DNA of 64,000 nt, from assembly GCF_001677475.2 (NCBI RefSeq), contig NZ_CP015229.1; one strand, written 5' to 3'. Below the pieces are notes generated by a model. It made no database searches and was not told where the DNA came from. It saw only the letters and a list, made by a program, of their open reading frames with translations. The translations under genes and the position numbers were made by a program. Source of the stretch: Escherichia coli (GTDB lineage: Bacteria; Pseudomonadota; Gammaproteobacteria; Enterobacterales; Enterobacteriaceae). Below, piece after piece: positions 8,788 through 53,399 of this stretch; within the stretch, counting starts at the first letter, position 1; every line of letters begins with the position of its first letter.

Positions 8788-10869
8788 ATGAAAGGTCGCC
8801 TGTTAGATGCTGTCCCACTCAGTTCCCTAACGGGCGTTGGCGCAGCACTTAGTAACAAACTGGCGAAAATCAACCTGCATACCGTGCAGGATCTACTGTT
8901 ACACCTTCCCCTGCGCTACGAAGATCGCACCCATCTCTACCCCATCGGAGAACTACTGCCGGGCGTTTATGCCACGGTGGAAGGCGAAGTGCTGAACTGC
9001 AATATCTCCTTCGGCGGTCGGCGGATGATGACCTGCCAGATCAGCGACGGTTCCGGCATTCTCACCATGCGCTTTTTCAACTTCAACGCGGCAATGAAAA
9101 ATAGCCTGGCGACGGGCCGCCGTGTACTGGCCTATGGTGAAGCAAAGCGCGGTAAATATGGTGCGGAGATGATCCACCCGGAATACCGCGTGCAAGGCGA
9201 TCTCAGCACGCCAGAGTTACAGGAAACGCTCACGCCGGTTTACCCAACTACGGAAGGCGTAAAGCAGGCCACGCTGCGTAAATTAACCGACCAGGCGCTG
9301 GATCTGCTCGACACCTGCGCCATTGAAGAACTCCTGCCGCCGGAACTGTCACAAGGAATGATGACGCTGCCGGAAGCGTTGCGCACTTTGCACCGCCCGC
9401 CGCCGACGCTACAGCTTAGCGATCTGGAAACCGGCCAGCATCCGGCACAACGCCGTCTGATTCTGGAAGAACTGCTGGCGCACAACCTCAGCATGTTAGC
9501 CTTACGTGCCGGAGCACAGCGTTTTCATGCCCAGCCACTGAGCGCCAATGACGCGCTGAAAAATAAACTCCTCGCAGCCTTACCGTTCAAGCCAACGGGC
9601 GCACAGGCACGCGTAGTGGCGGAGATCGAGCGCGATATGGCGCTGGATGTGCCGATGATGCGCCTGGTACAGGGCGATGTAGGTTCCGGTAAAACGCTGG
9701 TCGCCGCCCTCGCCGCGCTGCGTGCGATTGCCCACGGCAAACAGGTGGCATTAATGGCACCAACCGAATTACTCGCCGAGCAGCACGCCAATAACTTCCG
9801 CAACTGGTTTGAACCGCTCGGTATCGAAGTGGGCTGGCTCGCCGGTAAGCAGAAAGGTAAAGCGCGACTGTCTCAGCAGGAAGCCATTGCCAGCGGTCAG
9901 GTGCAGATGATTGTTGGTACGCACGCCATCTTCCAGGAACAGGTGCAGTTTAACGGCCTGGCGCTGGTGATTATCGACGAACAGCATCGCTTTGGCGTGC
10001 ATCAGCGTCTGGCATTGTGGGAGAAAGGCCAGCAGCAAGGCTTCCATCCGCATCAGCTGATCATGACCGCGACACCCATCCCACGCACGTTGGCAATGAC
10101 CGCCTATGCCGACCTTGATACCTCGGTGATAGATGAACTGCCGCCAGGCCGCACGCCAGTGACTACGGTCGCTATTCCTGATACCCGCCGTACCGACATT
10201 ATTGACCGCGTGCGCCATGCCTGCATCACCGAAAAGCGTCAGGCGTACTGGGTGTGCACACTCATTGAAGAGTCAGAGTTACTGGAAGCGCAGGCAGCTG
10301 AAGCTACCTGGGAAGAGTTGAAACTGGCGCTACCAGAGTTGAATGTTGGCCTGGTACACGGACGGATGAAACCAGCCGAGAAACAGGCGGTGATGGCGTC
10401 GTTTAAACAAGGTGAACTACACCTGCTGGTTGCCACTACCGTTATTGAAGTCGGCGTTGATGTGCCTAACGCCAGTCTGATGATTATCGAAAACCCGGAG
10501 CGTCTGGGTCTGGCGCAGTTACACCAGCTGCGCGGGCGTGTAGGTCGTGGCGCGGTGGCTTCTCACTGCGTGCTGCTCTACAAAACACCGCTCTCTAAAA
10601 CGGCGCAAATTCGCCTGCAAGTGCTGCGCGACAGCAACGACGGGTTTGTGATTGCACAAAAAGATCTGGAGATTCGCGGCCCTGGCGAATTGTTAGGCAC
10701 TCGTCAGACGGGTAATGCTGAATTTAAAGTGGCGGATTTACTGCGCGATCAGGCGATGATCCCGGAAGTTCAGCGCCTGGCGCGACATATTCACGAACGT
10801 TACCCACAACAAGCAAAAGCCCTGATAGAACGCTGGATGCCAGAAACAGAACGTTACTCCAACGCGTAA
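8788..10869 (+). CDS. recG: ATP-dependent DNA helicase RecG
   Basis: Track ORF 8755..10869; start set at MKGRLLDAVPL (693 aa); Walker A GDVGSGKT and DEQH box present. Confidence 0.95.
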   Translation: MKGRLLDAVPLSSLTGVGAALSNKLAKINLHTVQDLLLHLPLRYEDRTHLYPIGELLPGVYATVEGEVLNCNISFGGRRMMTCQISDGSGILTMRFFNFNAAMKNSLATGRRVLAYGEAKRGKYGAEMIHPEYRVQGDLSTPELQETLTPVYPTTEGVKQATLRKLTDQALDLLDTCAIEELLPPELSQGMMTLPEALRTLHRPPPTLQLSDLETGQHPAQRRLILEELLAHNLSMLALRAGAQRFHAQPLSANDALKNKLLAALPFKPTGAQARVVAEIERDMALDVPMMRLVQGDVGSGKTLVAALAALRAIAHGKQVALMAPTELLAEQHANNFRNWFEPLGIEVGWLAGKQKGKARLSQQEAIASGQVQMIVGTHAIFQEQVQFNGLALVIIDEQHRFGVHQRLALWEKGQQQGFHPHQLIMTATPIPRTLAMTAYADLDTSVIDELPPGRTPVTTVAIPDTRRTDIIDRVRHACITEKRQAYWVCTLIEESELLEAQAAEATWEELKLALPELNVGLVHGRMKPAEKQAVMASFKQGELHLLVATTVIEVGVDVPNASLMIIENPERLGLAQLHQLRGRVGRGAVASHCVLLYKTPLSKTAQIRLQVLRDSNDGFVIAQKDLEIRGPGELLGTRQTGNAEFKVADLLRDQAMIPEVQRLARHIHERYPQQAKALIERWMPETERYSNA

Positions 10870-10972
10870 AAGACGGCGGTGAGAAGACCGCCGCTTCAGG
10901 TTGTTCTACCTTCCTGCCGGATGTGCTTCGTCCTACAAAAACTTATAAATTCAATAAATTGTGAATCAATAC

Positions 10973-11001
10973 GTAGGCTTGATAAGCGAAGCGTATCAGG
11001 C
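10973..11001. repeat. REP (repetitive extragenic palindromic) element
   Basis: GTAGGCTTGATAAGCGAAGCGTATCAGGC matches the E. coli REP consensus family; lies between the convergent recG and gltS; a GC hairpin follows at about 11012-11035. Confidence 0.6.
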
Positions 11002-11044
11002 ATTTGTCTTTGTTGCGGCGGCACTTCTACCGCCGCTTCATCGG

Positions 11045-12250
11045 TTAACCCGCAAAAATCGGCAACATCAAATACAACTTAATTACCAGCGCGTTAACGA
11101 TATCGATAAAGAACGCACCGACCATCGGCACTACCAGGAAGGCCATGTGCGACGGGCCAAAACGTTCAGTGATCGCCTGCATGTTGGCGATTGCCGTTGG
11201 CGTTGCACCGAGGCCAAAACCACAGTGACCCGCAGCAAGCACTGCCGCATCGTAGTTTTTGCCCATCATGCGCCAGGTAACGAAGATGGCATACAACGCC
11301 ATGAAGATGGTCTGTACCACCAGAATCGCCAGCATCGGCAGCGCCAGCGAAGCCAGCTCCCACAGTTTCAGCCCCATCAGCGCCATCGCCAGGAACAACG
11401 ACAGGCTTACGTTACCCAGCACGGATACCGCACGCTCAAAGACGCGGTAAAAGCCCATCATTGACAGACCGTTGCTCAGAATCACGCCAACAAACAGTAC
11501 ACAGACGAAGGTCGGCAGTTCAAAAGCAGTGCCAGCCAAAAGTTGCGCAACAATTTTCCCCACCGTCAGGCAGATAGCAATCAGCGCGATAGTTTCAATC
11601 AGCACCAACGAGGTGATCATGCGGCCCACATCCGGCTTTTCGAACGCCGTCGGGACTTCCTGGTCATCCGGAATACCGTTCGGCGTGGTGGAGTGTTTCA
11701 CCAGATAGCGCGCCACCGGACCGCCAATCAAGCCGCCCAGCACCAAACCGAACGTTGCACAGGCCATCGCCACTTCCGTCGCATTGGTGAAGCCATAACG
11801 TTCAATGAACAATTTACTCCATGCAGCTCCCGTACCGTGACCGCCGGAAAGCGTAATAGAACCGGCCAGCAACCCCATCAGCGGATCAAGCCCTAACAGG
11901 CTAGCCATACCAATGCCAATGGCATTTTGCATCACCAACAGACCAACAACCACAATCAGGAAGATGCCAACCACACGCCCACCGGCACGCAAACTGGCAA
12001 TGTTGGCGTTCAGGCCAATGGTGGCGAAGAAAGCCAGCATTAACGGATCGCGTAGGGACATATCAAAGTTGACTTCCCAGCCCATGCTTTTTTTCAGTAC
12101 CAGTAGCGCCAGCGCCACCAACAAACCACCCGCAACAGGTTCCGGTATGGTGTATTTCTTCAAAAAGGAGACGGAATGGACCAACTTACGCCCGAGCAGC
12201 AACGTCAGCGTTGCGGCAACAAGCGTTGCTAAAGTATCGAGATGAAACAT
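11045..12250 (-). CDS. gltS: Sodium/glutamate symporter
   Basis: 401 aa polytopic membrane protein matching remembered GltS; conserved position. Confidence 0.9.
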   Translation of the reverse strand: MFHLDTLATLVAATLTLLLGRKLVHSVSFLKKYTIPEPVAGGLLVALALLVLKKSMGWEVNFDMSLRDPLMLAFFATIGLNANIASLRAGGRVVGIFLIVVVGLLVMQNAIGIGMASLLGLDPLMGLLAGSITLSGGHGTGAAWSKLFIERYGFTNATEVAMACATFGLVLGGLIGGPVARYLVKHSTTPNGIPDDQEVPTAFEKPDVGRMITSLVLIETIALIAICLTVGKIVAQLLAGTAFELPTFVCVLFVGVILSNGLSMMGFYRVFERAVSVLGNVSLSLFLAMALMGLKLWELASLALPMLAILVVQTIFMALYAIFVTWRMMGKNYDAAVLAAGHCGFGLGATPTAIANMQAITERFGPSHMAFLVVPMVGAFFIDIVNALVIKLYLMLPIFAG

Positions 12251-12529
12251 AGTTACTCCTTTGTATCCGCATCACTCTTTCATACTCGTCATACTTCATC
12301 GCGCAGTGGCAACTTCATGAACTATGACGGGTATCGAGTTATGCTTTCCTGGGTCAAATTCTCAGCTGTTAATGAACAAATGGCATGGATTTTAAGCAGA
12401 AAAATACCAAAAGTTATATAAAAAAGTGCATTTATCTCATTTAAATATTTAGATGAGGATGTGGCAAACGTTTGCTTTTCTCTTTCGGTCAGCTAAAATG
12501 CCCGCTTTGCTACCACGGGATTGTTTTCG

Positions 12530-13921
12530 ATGTCTGTTTCCACCCTCGAGTCAGAAAATGCGCAACCGGTTGCGCAGACTCAAAACAGCGAACTGATTTA
12601 CCGTCTTGAAGATAGTCCGCCGCTTCCTCAAACCTTGTTTGCCGCCTGTCAGCATCTGCTGGCGATGTTCGTTGCGGTGATCACGCCAGCGCTATTAATC
12701 TGCCAGGCGCTGGGTTTACCGGCACAAGACACGCAACACATTATTAGTATGTCGCTGTTTGCCTCCGGTGTGGCATCGATTATTCAAATTAAGGCCTGGG
12801 GTCCGGTTGGCTCCGGGCTGTTGTCTATTCAGGGCACAAGCTTCAACTTTGTTGCCCCGTTGATTATGGGCGGCACAGCGCTGAAAACCGGAGGTGCTGA
12901 TGTTCCTACCATGATGGCGGCTTTGTTCGGCACGTTGATGCTGGCAAGTTGTACCGAGATGGTGATCTCCCGCGTTCTGCATCTGGCGCGCCGCATTATT
13001 ACACCGCTGGTTTCTGGCGTTGTGGTGATGATTATCGGCCTGTCGCTAATTCAGGTGGGGCTGACCTCCATTGGCGGCGGTTACGCAGCCATGAGCGATA
13101 ACACCTTCGGCGCACCGAAAAATCTGCTGCTGGCAGGCGTGGTCTTAGCCTTAATTATCCTGCTTAACCGTCAACGTAACCCTTACTTACGCGTGGCCTC
13201 ACTGGTGATTGCGATGGCGGCCGGATATGCGCTGGCGTGGTTTATGGGCATGTTGCCAGAAAGCAACGAACCGATGACGCAAGAACTGATTATGGTGCCA
13301 ACGCCACTCTATTACGGTCTTGGCATTGAATGGAGTCTGCTGCTGCCGCTGATGCTGGTCTTTATGATCACTTCGCTGGAAACCATTGGCGATATCACGG
13401 CGACCTCTGACGTTTCCGAACAGCCAGTGTCCGGTCCGCTGTACATGAAACGCCTGAAAGGCGGCGTGCTGGCAAACGGTCTGAACTCGTTTGTTTCGGC
13501 GGTGTTTAACACCTTCCCGAACTCCTGCTTCGGGCAGAACAACGGAGTGATCCAGTTGACCGGTGTTGCCAGCCGCTATGTCGGTTTTGTCGTCGCGCTG
13601 ATGTTGATCGTGCTGGGTCTGTTCCCGGCAGTGAGCGGTTTTGTACAACACATTCCAGAACCGGTTCTGGGCGGCGCAACGCTTGTAATGTTTGGCACTA
13701 TCGCCGCTTCCGGTGTGCGCATTGTGTCTCGTGAGCCGCTGAACCGTCGGGCGATTCTGATTATCGCGCTGTCGCTGGCGGTCGGTCTGGGCGTCTCTCA
13801 GCAGCCGCTGATTTTGCAGTTTGCCCCTGAGTGGCTGAAAAACCTGCTCTCCTCCGGGATTGCCGCGGGCGGTATTACTGCCATCGTGCTGAATCTGATT
13901 TTCCCACCAGAAAAACAGTAA
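12530..13921 (+). CDS. xanP: Xanthine permease (NCS2 family)
   Basis: Track ORF 12521..13921; start at [10 protein letters not shown] (463 aa); NCS2 nucleobase transporter features. Confidence 0.85.
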
Positions 13922-14041
13922 TTCACTGGCGGCGGTAAGATAATTACCGCCGCAGTCTCACCTCTTTCACCATTCCCGCCTTGAGGATTGCGCGTAAATC
14001 GTGCATAACTCCCTTATGTGCATTTCACGGGATGGAAGACC

Positions 14042-44609: not shown

Positions 44610-46376
44610 ATGAATAATTCTATTAACCATAAATTTCATCACATTAGCCGGGCTGAATACCAGGAATTGTTAGCCGTTTCCCGTGGCGACGCTGTTGCCG
44701 ATTATATTATTGATAATGTCTCTATTCTCGACCTGATCAATGGCGGAGAAATTTCCGGCCCAATTGTGATTAAAGGACGTTACATTGCCGGTGTTGGCGC
44801 AGAATACACTGATGCTCCGGCTTTGCAGCGGATTGATGCCCGCGGCGCAACGGCGGTGCCAGGGTTTATTGATGCTCACCTGCATATTGAATCCAGCATG
44901 ATGACGCCGGTCACCTTTGAAACCGCTACCCTGCCGCGCGGCCTGACGACCGTTATTTGCGACCCTCATGAAATCGTCAACGTGATGGGCGAAGCCGGAT
45001 TCGCCTGGTTTGCCCGCTGTGCCGAACAGGCAAGGCAAAACCAGTACTTACAGGTCAGCTCTTGCGTACCCGCCCTGGAAGGCTGCGATGTTAACGGTGC
45101 CAGTTTTACCCTTGAACAGATGCTCGCCTGGCGGGACCATCCGCAGGTTACCGGCCTTGCAGAAATGATGGACTACCCTGGCGTAATTAGCGGGCAGAAT
45201 GCGCTGCTCGATAAACTGGATGCATTTCGCCACCTGACGCTGGACGGTCACTGCCCGGGTTTGGGTGGTAAAGAACTTAACGCCTATATTGCTGCGGGTA
45301 TTGAAAACTGCCACGAAAGTTATCAGCTGGAAGAAGGACGCCGGAAATTACAACTCGGTATGTCGTTGATGATCCGCGAAGGGTCCGCTGCCCGCAATCT
45401 CAACGCTCTGGCACCGTTGATCAACGAATTTAACAGCCCGCAATGCATGCTCTGTACCGATGACCGTAACCCGTGGGAGATCGCCCATGAAGGACACATC
45501 GATGCCTTAATTCGCCGCCTGATCGAACAACACAATGTGCCGCTGCATGTGGCATATCGCGTCGCCAGCTGGTCGACGGCGCGCCATTTTGGTCTGAATC
45601 ACCTCGGCTTACTGGCACCCGGCAAGCAGGCCGATATCGTCCTGTTGAGCGATGCGCGTAAGGTCACGGTGCAGCAGGTACTGGTGAAAGGCGAGCCGAT
45701 TGATGCGCAAACCTTACAGGCGGAAGAGTCGGCGAGACTGGCACAATCCGCTCCGCCGTATGGCAATACCATTGCCCGCCAGCCCGTTTCCGCCAGCGAC
45801 TTTGCCCTGCAATTCACGCCCGGAAAACGCTATCGGGTCATTGACGTCATCCATAACGAATTGATTACGCACTCCCGCTCCAGCGTCTATAGCGAAAATG
45901 GTTTTGATCGCGATGATGTGTGCTTTATTGCCGTACTTGAGCGTTACGGGCAACGGCTGGCTCCGGCCTGTGGTTTGCTCGGCGGCTTTGGCCTGAATGA
46001 AGGTGCGCTGGCTGCGACGGTCAGCCATGACAGCCATAATATTGTGGTGATCGGTCGCAGTGCGGAAGAGATGGCGCTGGCGGTCAATCAGGTGATTCAG
46101 GATGGCGGCGGGCTGTGCGTGGTACGTAACGGCCAGGTACAAAGTCATCTGCCGTTACCAATTGCAGGGCTGATGAGCACCGACACGGCGCAGTCGCTGG
46201 CGGAGCAAATTGACGCCTTGAAAGCCGCCGCCCGTGAATGCGGTCCGTTACCCGATGAGCCGTTTATTCAGATGGCGTTTCTTTCCCTGCCAGTGATCCC
46301 CGCGCTGAAACTAACCAGCCAGGGGCTGTTTGATGGCGAGAAGTTTGCCTTCACCACGCTGGAAGTCACGGAATGA
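44610..46376 (+). CDS. ade: Adenine deaminase
   Basis: 588 aa amidohydrolase with metal-binding HxH ([12 protein letters not shown]); length and position match K-12 ade. Confidence 0.9.
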
Positions 46377-46378
46377 AA

Positions 46379-46572
46379 AAAAGACCGTATTAGCTGATTT
46401 ACGGAAAATATGTACTCCACAAGCGTCAATATCAGACGAGGCCTGGGAAAAGATGATGTTGTCTGATGAAAGTAATCAGCAGCACATCCGTGAGGCTATT
46501 GTGGCGATGGAACGCAATAACCAGAAAAATTACTGGGAAGCGTTAGGCAAGGTTGAATGCCCGGATATGTAG
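46379..46572 (+). pseudogene. Truncated yicS paralog (C-terminal ~63 codons, no signal peptide)
   Basis: Encodes ...KKTVLADLRKICTPQASISDEAWEKMMLSDESNQQHIREAIVAMERNNQKNYWEALGKVECPDM, about 80% identical at nucleotide level to the 3' part of yicS (23890-24082); the N-terminal signal peptide is missing and the frame runs back into the ade 3' end. Confidence 0.7.
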
Positions 46573-46607
46573 ACGTGAAGCCGCAGCTTCACGTCTACAT
46601 TTAGCAC

Positions 46608-47564
46608 TTAACGTGAACGTATATCGGGAATAATTAAATCACCACGCAGAACATATGAACCCAGCATCGTCTGTGTCTTCTCGTTAAGCCAACTGACTAT
46701 CCGGGCGGCCATTTCGTCCAGCGAATACTCTATCGCCGGAATGGTCGGTATCCCCGGAAGATGAACAGTACCCGCCAGACTAAATACCATAATGTCCTCA
46801 GGAACAGATTTATTAAACGCCTGCAATTGCGGTATCACCCGCTGCGCTTGCTGTTCATCAGCAACTAATAACGCATTAAAGTTCAGTGTTGAGGCGTTAT
46901 TTAGCAGCTCCTGCAAAGCCACTGAGGAAGATATTGCTTCCATAAAAACCAGATTACGGTTAAAGGGAAGAAAGTTTTTCTCCAGCGCGTGTTTATAGCC
47001 CAGTAAGACCTGGTCAGAAAATCCCATACCGTGTGGGTGGATGAGGGCGATTTGTCGTCTGTTCTGACTTATCAGATAGTTACAAGCGGTTTCAGTCGCG
47101 AATGTGTGATCGAACTGAATACTGTTAACATCATTACCCGTCTCAAGGCAGTCCACCAGTATCACGTTTTCCTGATGAATATTCAGTGGGAAACGCGCAC
47201 CAATAATCAGTACGTCATCACACAAACCACAGCTCAGCTCATCAAGGGCGTTCTTTACCTCGGCTTTATTGCTGGCGAAGCGAAGAAGTAGATGTTTTTG
47301 ATGCTGGCTGAGATGTTTTTCCAGAGCGTAAAGATAACCGGTGGTCTGATTAATGTTTTCCTGAGCACAAATTACACCGATACAGCCCGTAGATTGCGTC
47401 AGCAGTGACTGCGCAATGACATTGGGACGATAGTTTAGCTCTTCGACGGCTTTCAATACCGCGAGACGGCTGGCTTCTTTAACACCACGCGATCCGCTCA
47501 ACACCCGAGAAACCGTCGCTTTTGAAACGCCAGCCAAACGCGATACATCATTGATAGTAGACAT
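46608..47564 (-). CDS. LacI/GalR-family transcriptional repressor
   Basis: N-terminal HTH MSTINDVSRLAGVSKATVSRVLSG followed by a periplasmic-binding-protein-like sugar-binding domain; SD GGGGAG before the chosen ATG; divergent from the PTS operon. Confidence 0.8.
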   Translation of the reverse strand: MSTINDVSRLAGVSKATVSRVLSGSRGVKEASRLAVLKAVEELNYRPNVIAQSLLTQSTGCIGVICAQENINQTTGYLYALEKHLSQHQKHLLLRFASNKAEVKNALDELSCGLCDDVLIIGARFPLNIHQENVILVDCLETGNDVNSIQFDHTFATETACNYLISQNRRQIALIHPHGMGFSDQVLLGYKHALEKNFLPFNRNLVFMEAISSSVALQELLNNASTLNFNALLVADEQQAQRVIPQLQAFNKSVPEDIMVFSLAGTVHLPGIPTIPAIEYSLDEMAARIVSWLNEKTQTMLGSYVLRGDLIIPDIRSR

Positions 47565-47855
47565 CATTCTCCCCTGACAGAGCGGCCCTGGCTCCCACAA
47601 TCCTGAATTCCTGTTGGCTTAAATATTAGCCATTCGCAGTATAACTGTTTCCGTTTTTTAATGGAAACCGATTTTCCATGACACCTCAAAACTGAGCTAA
47701 TAATGATAAAGATGTGAACAGAATCGAAATATTAACGCGACTTTATAGCGAAATCGGATAGCCGTCACAGTTTGTGTTTCCATGAATGGAAACCGGTTTC
47801 CAAATGATATCAAATCAATTGCGAAATAGATTTTTACATTCAGAGGATGTGTCAG

Positions 47856-48170
47856 ATGGTCAGGATTATGTTGTGTTGCTCTGCGGGGATGTCAACCAGT
47901 CTGCTGGTGAAAAAAATGGTCGAGGCCGCAGAAAGCAGAGAGCTACCGGTAGAGATAGATGCCTACGGAGTTTCCGAATTTGATATTCAGTTTCCAAAAT
48001 ATCAGGTGGTGCTACTCGGACCGCAGGTAAAGTATATGTTAAACATGCTCGCAGAAAAGGCCGCCCCCCAGGGAATACCCGTAAAAGCCATTGATATGGC
48101 GGACTACGGAATGCAACGGGGTGACAAGGTGCTGGATTACGCTCTGTCGCTCATTGCAGCGACACATTAG
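47856..48170 (+). CDS. PTS EIIB, lactose/cellobiose family
   Basis: About 104 aa with N-terminal MVRIMLCCSAGMSTS (active-site Cys motif typical of IIB-Cel/Lac). Confidence 0.8.
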   Translation: MVRIMLCCSAGMSTSLLVKKMVEAAESRELPVEIDAYGVSEFDIQFPKYQVVLLGPQVKYMLNMLAEKAAPQGIPVKAIDMADYGMQRGDKVLDYALSLIAATH

Positions 48171-48182
48171 AAAGGTGTCATT

Positions 48183-49514
48183 ATGAGTTCGTTATATCAA
48201 TCAATGGTTGCCGTTATTGAACAATCCATCACACCGCTTGCCGGGAAGCTGGGGCAGCAAAAATATGTGATTGCCATCCGGGACGGTTTTACTGCCGCTC
48301 TACCGTTTATGATCATCGGTTCGTTTATGCTGGTGTTCATTTTCCCACCGTTTTCGGCTGAAACAACCAACAGTTTTGCCCGAGGCTGGCTGGATTTCTC
48401 CGCCACCTACCGTGAACAGCTAATGTTGCCATTTAACCTCAGTATGGGAGTGATGACTTTCTTCATCTCAGTAGGAATCGGTGCCAGCCTTGGGCGACAG
48501 TTTAATCTCGATCCGATTATGTCTGGCTTGCTGGCATTTATGGCATTTTTACTGGTCGCAGCGCCTTACGCTGACGGCAAGATATCGACTCAATATCTTT
48601 CCGGGCAAGGTATTTTCACGTCGCTGATTACTGCGATTTATGCCACTCGTGTGTACGCCTGGTTAAAACAACACAACGTGACAATCCGCTTACCCAAAGA
48701 AGTCCCTACTGGGGTGGCGCGTTCCTTTGAGATCCTTATCCCGGTTCTGGTGGTCATTGCTACGCTACACCCACTGAATCTGTTTATTGAGGCCCAGACT
48801 GGAATGATTATTCCTGAGGCGATCATGCATCTTTTAGCGCCACTGGTCTCTGCCTCTGATTCCCTGCCTGCAATTCTGCTGTCTGTTCTGATGTGTCAGA
48901 TTTTCTGGTTCGCAGGTATTCATGGTTCACTGATTGTAACCGGCATCATGAATCCCTTCTGGATGGCAAACCTGTCGGCAAATCAGGCAGCTCTTGCCGC
49001 TGGCGCAGCACTTCCTCACGTTTATCTGCAAGGTTTTTGGGATCACTACCTGCTGATTGGTGGTGTCGGCTCGACGCTACCGCTGGCGTTCTTGCTGTTA
49101 CGCAGTCGCGTTGCTCACTTGCGCACCATCGGAAAAATGGGCGTTGTCCCCAGTTTTTTCAACATTAATGAGCCTATTCTGTTCGGTGCGCCGATCATCA
49201 TGAATCCGATGTTGTTTATCCCGTTCGTTTTCGTGCCAATTATTAACGCCATCCTGGCCTATACCGCGACCAGACTGGGCTGGCTGGCACAGGTTGTCTC
49301 ATTAACGCCATGGACCACACCTGCTCCAATTGGTGCCTCCTGGGCTGCCAACTGGGCACTTAGCCCGGTAGTGATGTGCATTATCTGTATGGTGATGTCG
49401 GCGCTGATGTACCTCCCATTCTTGCGCGCCTATGAACGCTCATTGCTAAAAAGCGAAGAACAAAAAGCGCAGGATACCGTCTCCGTGGCCAATGCAGCCC
49501 GTAGCAACTCATAA
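48183..49514 (+). CDS. PTS EIIC permease, lactose/cellobiose family
   Basis: 443 aa polytopic membrane protein directly following IIB; size and hydropathy typical of ChbC-type IIC. Confidence 0.8.
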   Translation: MSSLYQSMVAVIEQSITPLAGKLGQQKYVIAIRDGFTAALPFMIIGSFMLVFIFPPFSAETTNSFARGWLDFSATYREQLMLPFNLSMGVMTFFISVGIGASLGRQFNLDPIMSGLLAFMAFLLVAAPYADGKISTQYLSGQGIFTSLITAIYATRVYAWLKQHNVTIRLPKEVPTGVARSFEILIPVLVVIATLHPLNLFIEAQTGMIIPEAIMHLLAPLVSASDSLPAILLSVLMCQIFWFAGIHGSLIVTGIMNPFWMANLSANQAALAAGAALPHVYLQGFWDHYLLIGGVGSTLPLAFLLLRSRVAHLRTIGKMGVVPSFFNINEPILFGAPIIMNPMLFIPFVFVPIINAILAYTATRLGWLAQVVSLTPWTTPAPIGASWAANWALSPVVMCIICMVMSALMYLPFLRAYERSLLKSEEQKAQDTVSVANAARSNS

Positions 49515-49534
49515 TGAATCAAGGAGTAAGAACA

Positions 49535-50932
49535 ATGAGATACCGTTTTCCCGACAACTTCTGGTGGGGTAGTGCCTGCTCTGCGCTGCAAACCGAAGGG
49601 GATAGTCTGAACGGCGGCAAAAGCCAAACCACCTGGGATGTATGGTTCGAGCGCCAGCCAGGCCGCTTCCATCAAGGTATTGGCCCGGCGAACACATCAA
49701 CCTTTTATCAACACTGGCAACAAGATATTGCCCTGCTGAAACAGTTAAAACATAACAGTTTTCGCACCTCGTTAAGCTGGTCTCGCCTGATACCAGACGG
49801 TACTGGTGACGTAAATCCTGAAGCGGTGGCGTTCTATAACAATGTCATCGACGAGCTGCTGGCGCAGGGCATCACACCGTTTATCACCTTGTTCCACTTT
49901 GATATGCCGATGGTGATGCAGGAAAAAGGTGGCTGGGAGAGTCGTGAAGTCGTAGAAGCTTTTGGTGAATATGCCCGTACCTGCTTTGAACTGTTCGGCA
50001 ACAGAGTGAAGCACTGGTTTACCTTTAACGAACCGATTGTGCCGGTAGAGGGCGGTTATTTATATGACTTCCACTATCCGAACGTTGTTGATTTTAAACG
50101 TGCTGCGACAGTGGCTTACCATACCGTTCTTGCGCACGCCACGGCAGTTCGGGCATTTCGCCGCGGTAATTTCGAAGGTGAAATTGGCGTGGTGCTCAAC
50201 CTGACGCCTTCTTATCCGCGCTCGCAAAATCCGGCTGATGTTAAAGCCGCACACTGCGCTGACCTTCTGTTTAACCGCAGCTTCCTCGATCCGGTGCTAA
50301 AAGGAGAATACCCGGCAGACCTTGTAGCATTACTGAAAGAGTACGATCAGTTGCCGCAATGCCAGCCTGACGATAGTCAGCTAATCGCCGACGGAAAAAT
50401 CGACCTGCTGGGGATAAATTATTATCAACCCCGTCGAGTTAAATGCCGGGATAGCGCCGTAAACCCCAATGCTCCCTTTATGCCGGAGTGGTTATTTGAC
50501 TATTACGAGATGCCTGGGCGAAAAATGAATCCTTATCGGGGATGGGAAATTTATGAACCCGGTATTTACGATATCATCACCAATCTTCGCGATAATTATG
50601 GTAATCCTCGTTGTTTTATTTCTGAAAATGGGATGGGTGTAGAAAACGAGCAACGTTTTATTCAGGAAGGGCAAGTCAACGATAGCTATCGTATTGAATT
50701 TGTCGCTGAACATTTAAAATGGCTGCATAAAGGAATTAGCGAAGGGTGTAATTGCCTTGGCTATCATATGTGGACGTTTATCGATAACTGGTCATGGCTT
50801 AATGCTTATAAAAATCGCTATGGATTTGTTCAGCTTGATCTGGAAACGCAAACACGCACGATTAAAAAAAGTGGTGAGTGGTTTGCGACAGTTGCAGAAA
50901 ATAACGGTTTTGATTGCGAGAAACAAAAATGA
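49535..50932 (+). CDS. Glycoside hydrolase family 1, 6-phospho-beta-glucosidase/galactosidase
   Basis: GH1 signatures FPDNFWWGSACSALQTEG, acid/base TFNEP and nucleophile ISENGMG; SD AAGGAG 8 nt before ATG at 49535 (the track ORF begins at 49514). Confidence 0.85.
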   Translation: MRYRFPDNFWWGSACSALQTEGDSLNGGKSQTTWDVWFERQPGRFHQGIGPANTSTFYQHWQQDIALLKQLKHNSFRTSLSWSRLIPDGTGDVNPEAVAFYNNVIDELLAQGITPFITLFHFDMPMVMQEKGGWESREVVEAFGEYARTCFELFGNRVKHWFTFNEPIVPVEGGYLYDFHYPNVVDFKRAATVAYHTVLAHATAVRAFRRGNFEGEIGVVLNLTPSYPRSQNPADVKAAHCADLLFNRSFLDPVLKGEYPADLVALLKEYDQLPQCQPDDSQLIADGKIDLLGINYYQPRRVKCRDSAVNPNAPFMPEWLFDYYEMPGRKMNPYRGWEIYEPGIYDIITNLRDNYGNPRCFISENGMGVENEQRFIQEGQVNDSYRIEFVAEHLKWLHKGISEGCNCLGYHMWTFIDNWSWLNAYKNRYGFVQLDLETQTRTIKKSGEWFATVAENNGFDCEKQK

Positions 50933-51231
50933 TCGAACTAGAAGATGCTGTTATGGAAATAATCGTCAATGCCGGCCAGTCACGCAGCCTCTGTTTTGAA
51001 GCGTTACACGCGGCACGTGCCGGGAACTTTGATGAAGCCAAACAGCTGCTACATGAAGCTGACGGTTATTCGCGTCAGGCTCACCATATGCAAACCAAAT
51101 TGATCGAACAGGATGCTGGTGAGGCCCGTCAGCCAATGACATTAATTATGGTACATGCACAGGATCATTTAATGACATCGATGCTGGCACGAGAATTAGC
51201 AGAAGAAATAATTCATCTTTATCAAAGATAA
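50929..51231 (+). CDS. PTS EIIA, lactose/cellobiose family
   Basis: About 100 aa (MIELEDAVMEIIVNAGQSRS...AHHMQTKLIEQDAG...); ATGA overlap with the upstream stop. Confidence 0.8.
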   Translation: MIELEDAVMEIIVNAGQSRSLCFEALHAARAGNFDEAKQLLHEADGYSRQAHHMQTKLIEQDAGEARQPMTLIMVHAQDHLMTSMLARELAEEIIHLYQR

Positions 51232-51432
51232 TTAATTAATGCTTAGTGAGGAACATCTATTTGATAAAATAAAACCCCTGCTTTACCCAAGAATAAAATA
51301 GATAAACCACCCTGTTTCGGCAGTTAAAAACAAACCGAAACAGGCTGCTTATTATCATAAAACAAATTAATACACACCTTATATTTATTATGCCTAACGC
51401 ATAATGAATTATAACGTGTGCGTGAGATAATT

Positions 51433-52812
51433 ATGAAAAAGATAAATACACTTCCAGTTACCCTAGCGGTTATTGCCGCTTTGTACTCAATATCTGCCCA
51501 AGCTCAGGAATTTACTCAGGAACAAATAGACGCCATTGTGGCAAAAGCCGTCGATAAAGCATTAGCCGAAAGGCAAGAAAAAATGGATGCCGCGGCAGCG
51601 AAAAAAGTGGATGTTATTAACGAACCGGAAAGTGCTGCGCAGTCTCCGGATATGGCAATTCCCTTTGGCGTAAAATTTAGTGGTTATGCCCGTTATGGGG
51701 CTCACTTTCAAAGCGGCGATCAAAAATATGTTGCTGTAGACGGCTCCTATAATGGTGCATCTGCAATTGGTCGTCTGGGGAACGAAGGTAACGGCGGAGA
51801 GTTTCAGTTATCAAAAGCCTTCAAGAGCGATAACGGCGCAATCTGGGATGTCAATGTCATGATTGATCACTGGGGCGACGAAGTTAACCTGAAAAAAGCC
51901 TACGCTGGTGTCACCAATGTTTTGGCATCCAATCCTGACGCCTATATCTGGGCTGGTCGTGACTTCCACCAGCGCCCGCAACAGGGCATTAATGACTACT
52001 TCTGGATGACTCACGATGGTCAGGGTGCCGGGGTGAAAAATTTCGACATTGGTGGCATCAAGTTTGACCTTGCTACTGTCGCAGCGGTTGAATCCTGTAA
52101 TCCTGAAGTGATGGAGGATGAGACCAATCCGTCACGCATTACCTGTACTGGCGGGTCAGGAACGGGCGACAAAGGCAATTATGCGGTAACGTCCAAAATC
52201 CATGGTATGAAACTGGGGCCACTGGATCTTGAGTTGTACGCTAACTACGGCTTCGACTCAAAAGCGGTCGAAGGTGAAGACAAACTGAAAGCCTGGCAGG
52301 GGGCATTTGTTGTAAGCCATAGCAATGACAGCGGAGTGAATAAAGTCATTGCCCGCTACTCTGATAATTCCGATAACAGTGTTTACAATAAAACTGACGA
52401 TCTCACGACAATTTACGCCAGTTTTGAAGGTAGTCATAAATTTACCCAGCAGGCGCAAATCGAGTATTTACTGGCCTTCCATGATTACGACAACAGTTCT
52501 ATTAAGAGTGATAACCGCAAAAACTATGGCGTAATTGTCCGTCCTATGTATTTCTGGAATGACGTTCACTCCACCTGGCTTGAGGCGGGTTATCAACGGG
52601 TTGATTATGATAAAGGCGGAGATAATTCCGGCTGGAAGCTGACGCTGTCACAGAACATTTCTATTGCGATGGGCCCGGAATTCCGCCCAATGCTACGTTT
52701 CTACATGACGGGCGGGCAAGTTGATAATGACCGGACTGCACGCGTCAACGGTACAAAAGAGGAAACGCTTGACGACTTTAACCTTGGCGCGATGTGGGAA
52801 GCCTGGTTCTGA
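51433..52812 (+). CDS. LamB-family carbohydrate-specific outer-membrane porin
   Basis: Signal peptide MKKINTLPVTLAVIAALYSISAQA; IWAGRDFHQRPQQGINDYFWMTHDGQGAG parallels the maltoporin greasy-slide region; C-terminal ...GAMWEAWF aromatic end. Confidence 0.75.
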   Translation: MKKINTLPVTLAVIAALYSISAQAQEFTQEQIDAIVAKAVDKALAERQEKMDAAAAKKVDVINEPESAAQSPDMAIPFGVKFSGYARYGAHFQSGDQKYVAVDGSYNGASAIGRLGNEGNGGEFQLSKAFKSDNGAIWDVNVMIDHWGDEVNLKKAYAGVTNVLASNPDAYIWAGRDFHQRPQQGINDYFWMTHDGQGAGVKNFDIGGIKFDLATVAAVESCNPEVMEDETNPSRITCTGGSGTGDKGNYAVTSKIHGMKLGPLDLELYANYGFDSKAVEGEDKLKAWQGAFVVSHSNDSGVNKVIARYSDNSDNSVYNKTDDLTTIYASFEGSHKFTQQAQIEYLLAFHDYDNSSIKSDNRKNYGVIVRPMYFWNDVHSTWLEAGYQRVDYDKGGDNSGWKLTLSQNISIAMGPEFRPMLRFYMTGGQVDNDRTARVNGTKEETLDDFNLGAMWEAWF

Positions 52813-52830
52813 CAGGCCACTCACATTGAG

Positions 52831-53283
52831 TTAATGCAACCAAAACACGCCTTCTTCTGGCTGGAAGAGGGCGTTATAGCGCATTTGGAAGGCATTAATC
52901 TCCTGCATATCTGGCTCTAACTCACGGAGAAAACCCAGCGCCAGACGGACCTGGGCATCAGTGATCGGCGCAGCAAGACGCGCTTTTTGCAACAACCGAT
53001 GCCAACGTAACAGGTTCTGCTCACTACCATCGACAATCACAATTTGCCAGATAAGTAACACCTGAGCAGCATTTTGCAGATGAGATTCATCCGGGCGATG
53101 CAAATAATACAAAAACTCTTTACCAGGCATTTTACCCATCTGATCGATCATCGATTCTACGGGTACAACATCAATATTAAGTCGTTCGCTTAAACGGCGA
53201 ATCGCCCGTCGGGTGCCTGACGTCAGAACCCGAAAACCAACCACAAACACCACCACGACGGTGGCAAGCATTATCCAGATCAT
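52831..53283 (-). CDS. DUF1198 membrane protein, yicN paralog (150 aa)
   Basis: Roughly 85% identical at protein level to the yicN at 42596-43048 by eye; lies between the porin gene and uhpT. Confidence 0.8.
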   Translation of the reverse strand: MIWIMLATVVVVFVVGFRVLTSGTRRAIRRLSERLNIDVVPVESMIDQMGKMPGKEFLYYLHRPDESHLQNAAQVLLIWQIVIVDGSEQNLLRWHRLLQKARLAAPITDAQVRLALGFLRELEPDMQEINAFQMRYNALFQPEEGVFWLH

Positions 53284-53399
53284 GCGTTCTCCTGCGCATC
53301 AACTTTTGATGATATCTGGAAAACTCCCCCAGGCGTTAATCTGGTCAAATTGAATAAAAAAAGCCCGGCGTCATGCCGGGCAAAAGTCACCAGTTACGT

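Follow-up and report, generated by a model that had tools for sequence, protein, structure and literature searches.

A truncated yicS of Escherichia fergusonii type at the left edge of a PTS cassette between adeD and uhpT in Escherichia coli

Each of the cryptic beta-glucoside systems of Escherichia coli K-12 (bgl, asc and chb) combines a phospho-beta-glucosidase with a PTS permease and a repressor, to which bgl adds BglH, a LamB-like porin. The gene cassette described here is of the same design, and a LamB-type porin is found both in it and in bgl. It differs in that it carries separate lactose/cellobiose-family IIA, IIB and IIC components together with a glycoside hydrolase of family 1 (GH1) and a LacI-type repressor.

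A second point of comparison is homology-facilitated illegitimate recombination (HFIR), which is reported to occur in E. coli at ~3e-10 per recipient (Amarir-Bouhram et al. 2011, PMC3240628). In HFIR and related illegitimate recombination (PMC3240628), foreign DNA is joined at a microhomology of a few bases without an integrase or an insertion sequence (IS). The island resembles this, but the process is read here from the joints only. The gene fragment at the island edge is already labelled a pseudogene in public annotation, where its origin is not given: the RefSeq/PGAP 'YicS family protein' pseudogenes (e.g. AACG44_RS14710 in NZ_CP151026.1) have the same sequence and the same position between adeD and the LacI-family gene, with no structural difference. 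Among the papers listed by a literature search on yicS, none concerns this locus.

The window analysed is a stretch of 64,000 nt of E. coli DNA, to which all coordinates refer unless stated otherwise. The adenine deaminase gene adeD (ade, 588 amino acids, 44610-46376, plus strand; from the open reading frame list, PGAP and the junctions) is followed directly by a partial yicS, here called yicS' (46372-46572, plus strand), a pseudogene that comprises codons 32-97 and the TAG stop codon of an E. fergusonii-type yicS. Very probably yicS' is the non-functional remnant of another lineage's yicS, brought in at the front of a PTS cassette of beta-glucoside type, 7 kb long, that arrived by illegitimate recombination. 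As to its nature, yicS' is the dead 3' two-thirds of yicS, an ordinary recombination scar at an island edge.

A preliminary description had placed a truncated yicS homologue of about 190 bp, starting at 46379, directly after the adeD stop codon. The homologue and its content, the C-terminal two-thirds of YicS, are borne out by an alignment anchored on the stop codons and by a match to the NCBIfam model NF041639 (YicS_fam); the start is not, as the true left limit is 46372, 7 nt further to the left, at donor codon 32 (AAT). From there 66 residues are encoded up to the TAG at 46570-46572. The translation scores 103 bits (E = 7.7e-30) against NF041639, above the curated cutoff of 45 bits, but it covers only positions 26-96 of the 96 in the profile and thus falls short of full length, whereas two intact YicS proteins span positions 3-96. 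A Pfam-A scan of yicS' gave no match with a library that lacked the recent YicS model PF27428; precomputed domain tables include that model. The frame is +1 relative to adeD and overlaps its last codon and stop (GAA TGA, 46371-46376). 'Fused' to the 3' end of ade, as first worded, is therefore right in the sense of abutting and overlapping, but there is no translational fusion. Missing from yicS' are the N-terminal ~10 residues of the mature protein and the signal peptide before them: in an alignment with intact members, all of which have a Sec-type signal peptide, inspection finds no hydrophobic N-terminus, and the 13 residues added by an in-frame ATG at 46333, inside adeD, contain no hydrophobic core. 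The early remark on the missing signal peptide is thus upheld.

An intact resident yicS is present 22.5 kb away on the same strand (23789-24082; 97 amino acids with the signal peptide MKPTMLLMITVFLTFSAISQA in its translation; NF041639 128 bits, positions 3-96); the matching gene in related genomes is named 'protein YicS' by PGAP. Positions 46375-46572 align with 23885-24082 without gaps, in frame and anchored on both stop codons, with 155/192 to 160/198 identical bases (~81%), and BLASTN of 46372-46571 against K-12 yicS gives 81.0% identity (E = 4e-49). The previously noted ~80% identity to an intact gene 22 kb upstream agrees with these values. Similarity extends over the whole 3' two-thirds of yicS and is no low-complexity patch; left of 46363 it falls to background, i.e. 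2-4 matches per 15 bases.

Is yicS' then an old duplicate of the resident gene that diverged in place beside adeD? An intact yicS in the same genome, 81% identical and in the same orientation, would suit such an origin. The substitutions speak otherwise: 37 of 198 nt differ from the resident gene, with 27.5 of 36.8 synonymous sites changed (pS 0.75, i.e. saturated; pN 0.06) and 89% amino-acid identity, as against only 4 of 198 nt (two synonymous, two non-synonymous) relative to yicS of an E. fergusonii locus (L006). A protein search with yicS' finds an intact 97-residue YicS (P0002), 97% identical, while E. coli YicS alleles are 85-91% identical. Moreover, yicS' is continuous with 6.7 kb of cassette, the same that stands behind an intact yicS in both E. 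fergusonii and Citrobacter, and it is missing from 5,401 of 5,426 E. coli genomes. The collinear 98.4% match to the E. fergusonii locus described below refutes the intragenomic duplicate, which is left with practically no probability. A recent duplication had been doubted from the start, rightly in view of 37/198 against 4/198 differences; 'paralog', the term used at that time, has to be given up, and yicS' is best called a xenolog, the syntenic gene of another lineage. The DUF1198 gene yicN at the other end of the island agrees with this, its foreign copy (yicN') differing from the resident yicN at 91 of 450 nt (pS 0.60). Compared with pS 0.11 for yicI between the window and E. fergusonii, the values of 0.75 for yicS and 0.60 for yicN mark the yicS'...yicN' haplotype as an anciently diverged version of the locus.

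Where did the haplotype come from? Positions 46372-53323 match positions 10094-17046 of the E. fergusonii locus L006 in a single collinear block of 6,953 bp at 98.4% identity. In E. fergusonii, the limits of the block are nt 94 (codon 32) of the intact yicS on one side and a point 40 bp upstream of yicN on the other. Contigs that encode the P0002 protein read yicL, intact yicS, LacI, IIB, IIC, GH1, IIA, porin, DUF1198, adeD and uhpT, and the order from yicS through the cassette to yicN is found in eight E. fergusonii loci. The E. fergusonii identity of two of the sampled loci (L004 and L006) is taken from two papers that cite the accessions CP079884 and CP042945 as chromosomes of this species (PMC9204285, PMC10740950); the GTDB scan uses one genome per species and lists no E. 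fergusonii representative. The native locus of CP042945 and CP079884 has the same genes as the island in the same order, with 98.1-98.4% nucleotide identity over 6.95 kb, and the same stem-loop between yicS and the regulator gene. It differs in that its yicS is intact (97 amino acids, signal peptide), in the sequence past yicN, which is unlike the last 32 bp of the island in the window, and in place: the E. fergusonii block lies between yicL and adeD, the syntenic yicS-yicN position, and the island between adeD and uhpT.

The linkage is not confined to E. fergusonii. Among species representatives, Citrobacter portucalensis, Citrobacter sedlakii and two unnamed Citrobacter species have nlpA-yicS-LacI-IIB-IIC-GH1-IIA-porin-nepI-yicN, with cassette proteins 84-96% identical to those of the island (~80% at the nucleotide level). 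As in the island, the Citrobacter cassette is linked to the 3' end of yicS; unlike in the island, nepI stands between the porin gene and yicN, and several species retain the GH1 gene only. L016, from a separate Escherichia species cluster, likewise has the cassette after yicS, with 95.4% identity to the island. By contrast, the cassette is absent from Escherichia whittamii, Escherichia albertii and other representatives of the genus, in which adeD is directly beside uhpT. The position downstream of yicS in E. fergusonii, Citrobacter and L016, taken with the empty sites, indicates that the native place of the cassette is 3' of yicS and that the adeD-uhpT position is derived. An older recombination event joining a yicS-linked segment to ade had been proposed, and the E. 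fergusonii match and the same linkage in Citrobacter substantiate it. The donor was probably an E. fergusonii-like relative.

Some of these loci deserve mention in their own right. L016 (NZ_JAATUR010000037.1, labelled E. coli SCPM-O-B-8794, a strain on which no literature was found) represents a separate GTDB species; it reads yicS'-cassette-yicN-adeQ-adeD with yicS' intact and with E. coli-like yicN and adeQ, a third arrangement of the locus in the genus. Eleven Citrobacter loci (L022, L024, L025, L028, L030-L033, L036, L038 and L045) retain GH1 alone between yicS and nepI, without regulator, PTS subunits or porin, which shows that the cassette has partly decayed where it is native.

The island itself consists of eight genes, whose names are taken from the PGAP annotation of a near-identical genome (L001). 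After yicS' follow a LacI-family regulator gene (46608-47564, minus strand; Pfam LacI, PF00356, and Peripla_BP_3 on the E. fergusonii homologue) and, on the plus strand, genes for PTS IIB of the lactose/cellobiose family (47856-48170; PF02302), PTS IIC (48183-49514; PF02378), the GH1 enzyme, a putative 6-phospho-beta-glucosidase (49535-50932; PF00232), PTS lactose/cellobiose IIA (50929-51231; PF02255) and a LamB-type carbohydrate porin (51433-52812; PF02264). With IIA, IIB, IIC, an enzyme of the GH1 phospho-beta-glucosidase family and a dedicated regulator, PGAP and Pfam together describe a PTS operon of the lactose/cellobiose family for beta-glucoside utilisation. At the right end is yicN' (52831-53283, minus strand; PGAP 'DUF1198 family protein'), intact and 99% identical in amino acids to the E. 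fergusonii protein; the resident yicN (42596-43048, minus strand; PGAP from L001), a core gene that adjoins adeQ, has 80% nucleotide identity to it. To the right of the island is the core gene uhpT (53400-54791, minus strand; PGAP), 98.1% identical to that of K-12. Sequence of K-12 type stops at 46382-46387 and restarts at 53353-53356, and yicS' does mark the left boundary of the PTS island, as had been thought. The island thus carries diverged copies of two core near-neighbours (in the order yicS-nepI-yicN), truncated yicS' on the left and intact yicN' on the right, and their presence at opposite ends indicates an origin from the syntenic locus elsewhere. None of the eight genes is a mobility gene; there is no integrase, IS or tRNA gene in or beside the island, and a search for terminal repeats of at least 15 bp at its ends found no long ones. 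The source locus, yicN' at the other end and the base-level joints are newly identified here.

What did the site look like before the insertion? In a K-12 derivative the stop codons of the convergent adeD and uhpT are 45 bp apart, with the spacer GGAATAATAAAAAAAGCCCGGCGTCATGCCGGGCAAAAG. Sequences of K-12, Escherichia sp. E1V33 and E. fergusonii show the empty site, with only a short intergenic terminator between the two genes; for E. whittamii, E. albertii and an E69-type species representative the arrangement follows from gene spacing alone. The left recombination joint, GAATGAAAAAAAGACC (46371-46386), is of adeD type up to AAT and of donor yicS type from AAT on, as a three-way comparison shows: the K-12/E. 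fergusonii empty site reads GGAATAATAAAAAAA(A)GCCC and E. fergusonii yicS reads GGCAAATGAAAAAAAGACC. With a slash at the crossover, the adeD parent is ...GTCACGGAAT/AATAAAAAAAGCCC, the donor yicS parent ...AATCGGCAAAT/GAAAAAAAGACCGT and the product ...GTCACGGAATGAAAAAAAGACCGT; in shorter form, adeD ...ACGGAAT/AATAAAAAAAG and donor ...GGCAAAT/GAAAAAAAG have AAT and an A-run in common. Both parents of the joint are therefore identified, and they share a few bases, AAT + A7, at the crossover, i.e. a microhomology junction. The adeD stop codon is TGA here and TAA in K-12 and E. fergusonii; the TGA consists of the shared T and the GA of the donor codon GAA, and the C-terminus of AdeD is unchanged.

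The right joint (53352-53381) consists of GAATAAAAAAAGCCC and the original adeD/uhpT hairpin (GCCCGGC-GTCAT-GCCGGGC, from the fold), and matches the K-12 empty site from the A-run onward. Read on the minus strand, the A7 run at this joint forms the T tract that belongs to the uhpT terminator. Identity to the E. fergusonii loci (L003-L010) ends at 53323 (...ATATCTGGAAAA). The next 32 bp (53324-53355), CTCCCCCAGGCGTTAATCTGGTCAAATTGAAT, also given as CTCCCCCAGGCGTTAATCTGGTCAAATTGAA, have no match in the sampled E. fergusonii genomes and are followed by the A7 run and the terminator hairpin. Their donor was sought by blastn-short against all fetched loci, which gave only island-bearing contexts of E. 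coli type, and by an exact 27-mer scan of JGI metagenomes, which gave a single contig of the same E. coli context. An exact look-up of the yicN' protein gave E. coli-type contexts only. When compared by eye with the spacers that separate yicN from adeQ in E. coli, in other Escherichia and in Citrobacter, the 32 bp appear weakly similar to the yicN-adeQ spacer and the last adeQ codons, a resemblance without statistical support. Both island ends read GAAT(G)AAAAAAAG, so that a GAAT + A7 + G motif of ~12-15 nt recurs.

The island is rare. A 264-bp query across the yicS'-regulator junction (46377-46640) finds it in 25 of 5,426 complete E. coli genomes (0.46%), always in the chromosome, with matches 96.6-99.2% identical. 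All 25 copies are annotated 'YicS family protein', and the five records opened are all described by PGAP as incomplete and missing the N-terminus. No intact second yicS, for which a survey of the ade position had been proposed, is present in the 5,426 genomes, nor does the 5' part of donor-type yicS find a match in them better than resident yicS (60-80% identity). The 11 E. coli copies examined, the window counted, have the same left joint. Their islands form one clade, 0-1.6% apart, which is sister to an E. fergusonii clade (0.3-0.9% apart inside), with 1.6-2.1% between the two. A single insertion is thereby indicated, followed by inheritance or by homologous spread within E. coli, and the distances, 1.6-2.1% from E. 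fergusonii and up to 1.6% among the E. coli islands, indicate that the transfer was not recent.

The same diversity could be read in another way. If adeD-yicS'-cassette-yicN'-uhpT were the ancestral order in E. coli or in Escherichia, the 45-bp spacer would be the product of repeated precise deletions. A single clade of E. coli copies with up to 1.6% diversity, about that of the species-wide core, is compatible with this, and recombination between the GAAT + A7 + G repeats at the two ends could cut the island out precisely. But K-12, Escherichia sp. E1V33 and E. fergusonii have one and the same sequence at the empty site, with adeD beside uhpT in other Escherichia representatives, and independent deletions would not all rebuild the same intact terminator. 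Nor can a truncated yicS precede an intact gene that is linked to the same cassette elsewhere, and a prevalence of 0.46% also speaks against an ancestral state. The ancestral arrangement is accordingly quite unlikely. Transfer into E. coli is the direction suggested by the derivation of a truncated copy from an intact one and by the prevalence.

How might the cassette have been inserted? One copy of the block, reaching from the middle of yicS to just past yicN, occupies the 45-bp spacer between the convergent adeD and uhpT in a minority of E. coli. At the left joint, illegitimate recombination would have used a short microhomology between donor AAT-GAAAAAAAG and the site after the adeD stop, AAT-AAT-AAAAAAAG, with the crossover on the adeD stop codon and at the A-run from which the uhpT terminator has its T tract; the GAAT + A7 + G motif may have been used again at the right joint. 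Insertion could have been a one-step event with two microhomology joints, or could have involved a circular intermediate and a single crossover. Another possibility is HFIR anchored in uhpT, with later loss of a redundant adeQ'-ade' copy between the GAAT repeats. The microhomology is short and A-rich, and the proposed mechanism is reconstructed from sequence. The uhpT flank and the 3' flank of adeD in the window are about equally near K-12 and E. fergusonii (0-6 differences per 100 bp), and adeD (nt 301 to the end) and uhpT are 97-98% identical between the two species. With donor and recipient so nearly alike on either side of the island, mosaicism in the flanks cannot tell a homologous anchor from none.

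Directly after yicS', and overlapping its stop codon, is a hairpin with a perfect 15-bp stem and a 4-nt loop (46567-46600; inverted repeat I7, 100% complementary), with folding energies of -25.6 (plus strand) and -31.0 kcal/mol (minus strand) and z values of -6.2 and -6.8. In E. fergusonii and Citrobacter, yicS is followed by a similar stem made of other bases, and the hairpin is the stem-loop that natively separates yicS from the convergent regulator gene. It is also the first strong stem-loop downstream of adeD in the window, so that an adeD transcript would run through yicS' to the old yicS stem-loop before meeting any strong hairpin. The transcripts may end there. A consensus terminator scan does not call this hairpin, which has a short T tract with three T's after the stem. 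An Rfam search of 46200-47900 found nothing. A programmed +1 frameshift from adeD into yicS' at GAA-TGA-A7 was considered and rejected: there is no slippery codon for re-pairing, the A-run varies in length and one strain is frameshifted.

Could yicS' nevertheless be alive, as a signal-less cytoplasmic protein of 79 amino acids (from ATG 46333) or 39 amino acids (from ATG 46453), or as a 3' UTR/terminator module of adeD? The frame is open in 10 of the 11 copies, ATG 46333 is preceded at 7 nt by an AGGGG, a 39-residue open reading frame with the YicS Pfam domain is predicted by some gene callers, and the strong hairpin directly after yicS' would fit a 3' UTR module. An open frame, however, is what one expects by default at ~2% divergence from an intact gene, and the substitutions relative to E. 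fergusonii are two synonymous and two non-synonymous, too few to exclude selection statistically. The frame is broken by a 7-bp deletion in strain Combat11I9, and in PE164 an A6 instead of an A7 run uncouples the upstream ATG from the YicS frame. The family is one of exported proteins with two conserved cysteines, yet yicS' has no signal peptide; no Rfam family matches either. A live remnant is thus very improbable. A function of its own appears unlikely for yicS', which lacks a signal peptide as well as a start codon of its own and has decayed in some strains. A further sign of neutral decay, beside those in Combat11I9 and PE164, is an internal stop codon in yicN' of E. coli O158:H23 CFIAFB20140388 (L048, 14455-14907); the foreign DUF1198 copy is therefore dispensable.

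With the reading of yicS' as a transferred and truncated yicS, the annotation of 46372-46572 is settled: it is a pseudogene remnant, not to be called a gene or an extension of AdeD. Remnants of genes at the edges of islands are a textbook class, and the understanding of genome evolution is unchanged. The locus is, all the same, a well-resolved case of a metabolic cassette that moves between Escherichia species without mobility genes: donor locus, empty site and left joint are all visible at base resolution, and the crossover coincides with a stop codon and with a terminator's A/T tract.

The cassette invites a wider proposal. E. fergusonii is cellobiose-positive in diagnostic tests (PMC5454151), and the link between this trait and the cassette is one that we draw here. 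At its fullest, the proposal has the cassette as the basis of the trait, by which E. fergusonii is distinguished from E. coli, its rare E. coli carriers as cellobiose/beta-glucoside fermenters that arose by an integrase-free interspecies 'cut and paste' out of a syntenic site into a new one, and yicS' as co-opted for the adeD 3' UTR or terminator or translated into a cytoplasmic peptide; taken as a whole, this is unlikely. If the cassette does give an E. fergusonii-like sugar phenotype in ~0.5% of E. coli, it might confuse biochemical identification.

Several observations concern neighbouring sequences. The resident yicS and nepI, separated by 40 bp in K-12, have a 16-kb insertion between them in the window (24384-40199) that carries a SycD/LcrH-type chaperone, SipB-like and IpaD/SipD-like type III secretion proteins, the HilA-family regulator EilA and a 2,933-residue inverse autotransporter, IatC/Air. 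This slot is the place of the PTS cassette in Citrobacter, so that the same slot has taken up different cargo in different lineages. Inside iatC (33550-36780) is an array of ~97-residue tandem repeats, with BLAST self-matches at 291-bp offsets that are 82-88% identical; the copy number appears to vary between strains, since the annotated length of iatC varies. Between nepI and yicN (41814-42480) are a RelE/ParE-family toxin gene and a DNA-binding partner, a pair that K-12 lacks and that is present in every island-bearing E. coli genome opened. To the right, two open reading frames (508 and 435 amino acids; 58630-61677, minus strand) separate uhpA from ilvN, which adjoin in K-12; no Pfam domain is recorded for their counterparts in related contigs, and the one next to uhpA is 'hypothetical' in PGAP.

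The E. fergusonii locus has a history of its own. It has no nlpA, nepI or adeQ. Its adeD (L006, 17292-19058) is a mosaic, in which the first ~250 nt are ~29% different from E. coli (pS 0.73, pN 0.16) and the remainder is 97.7% identical (pS 0.09), the boundary suggesting an old recombination breakpoint inside the gene. Its yicL (8956-9881 in L003-L010, against 21805-22730 in the window) has 77.6% nucleotide and 87% amino-acid identity to E. coli, whereas the Citrobacter YicL proteins, at 88-93% amino-acid identity, are closer to E. coli, and yicI nearby is at 97%. The segment from yicL to the 5' end of adeD thus looks like a deeply diverged or imported haplotype. Lastly, a 10.7-kb contig labelled 'MAG: Collinsella sp.' (Actinomycetota; L018, JAIJJM010000039.1) encodes a YicS 99% identical to the resident E. 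coli protein, and is very likely a mis-binned Escherichia contig.
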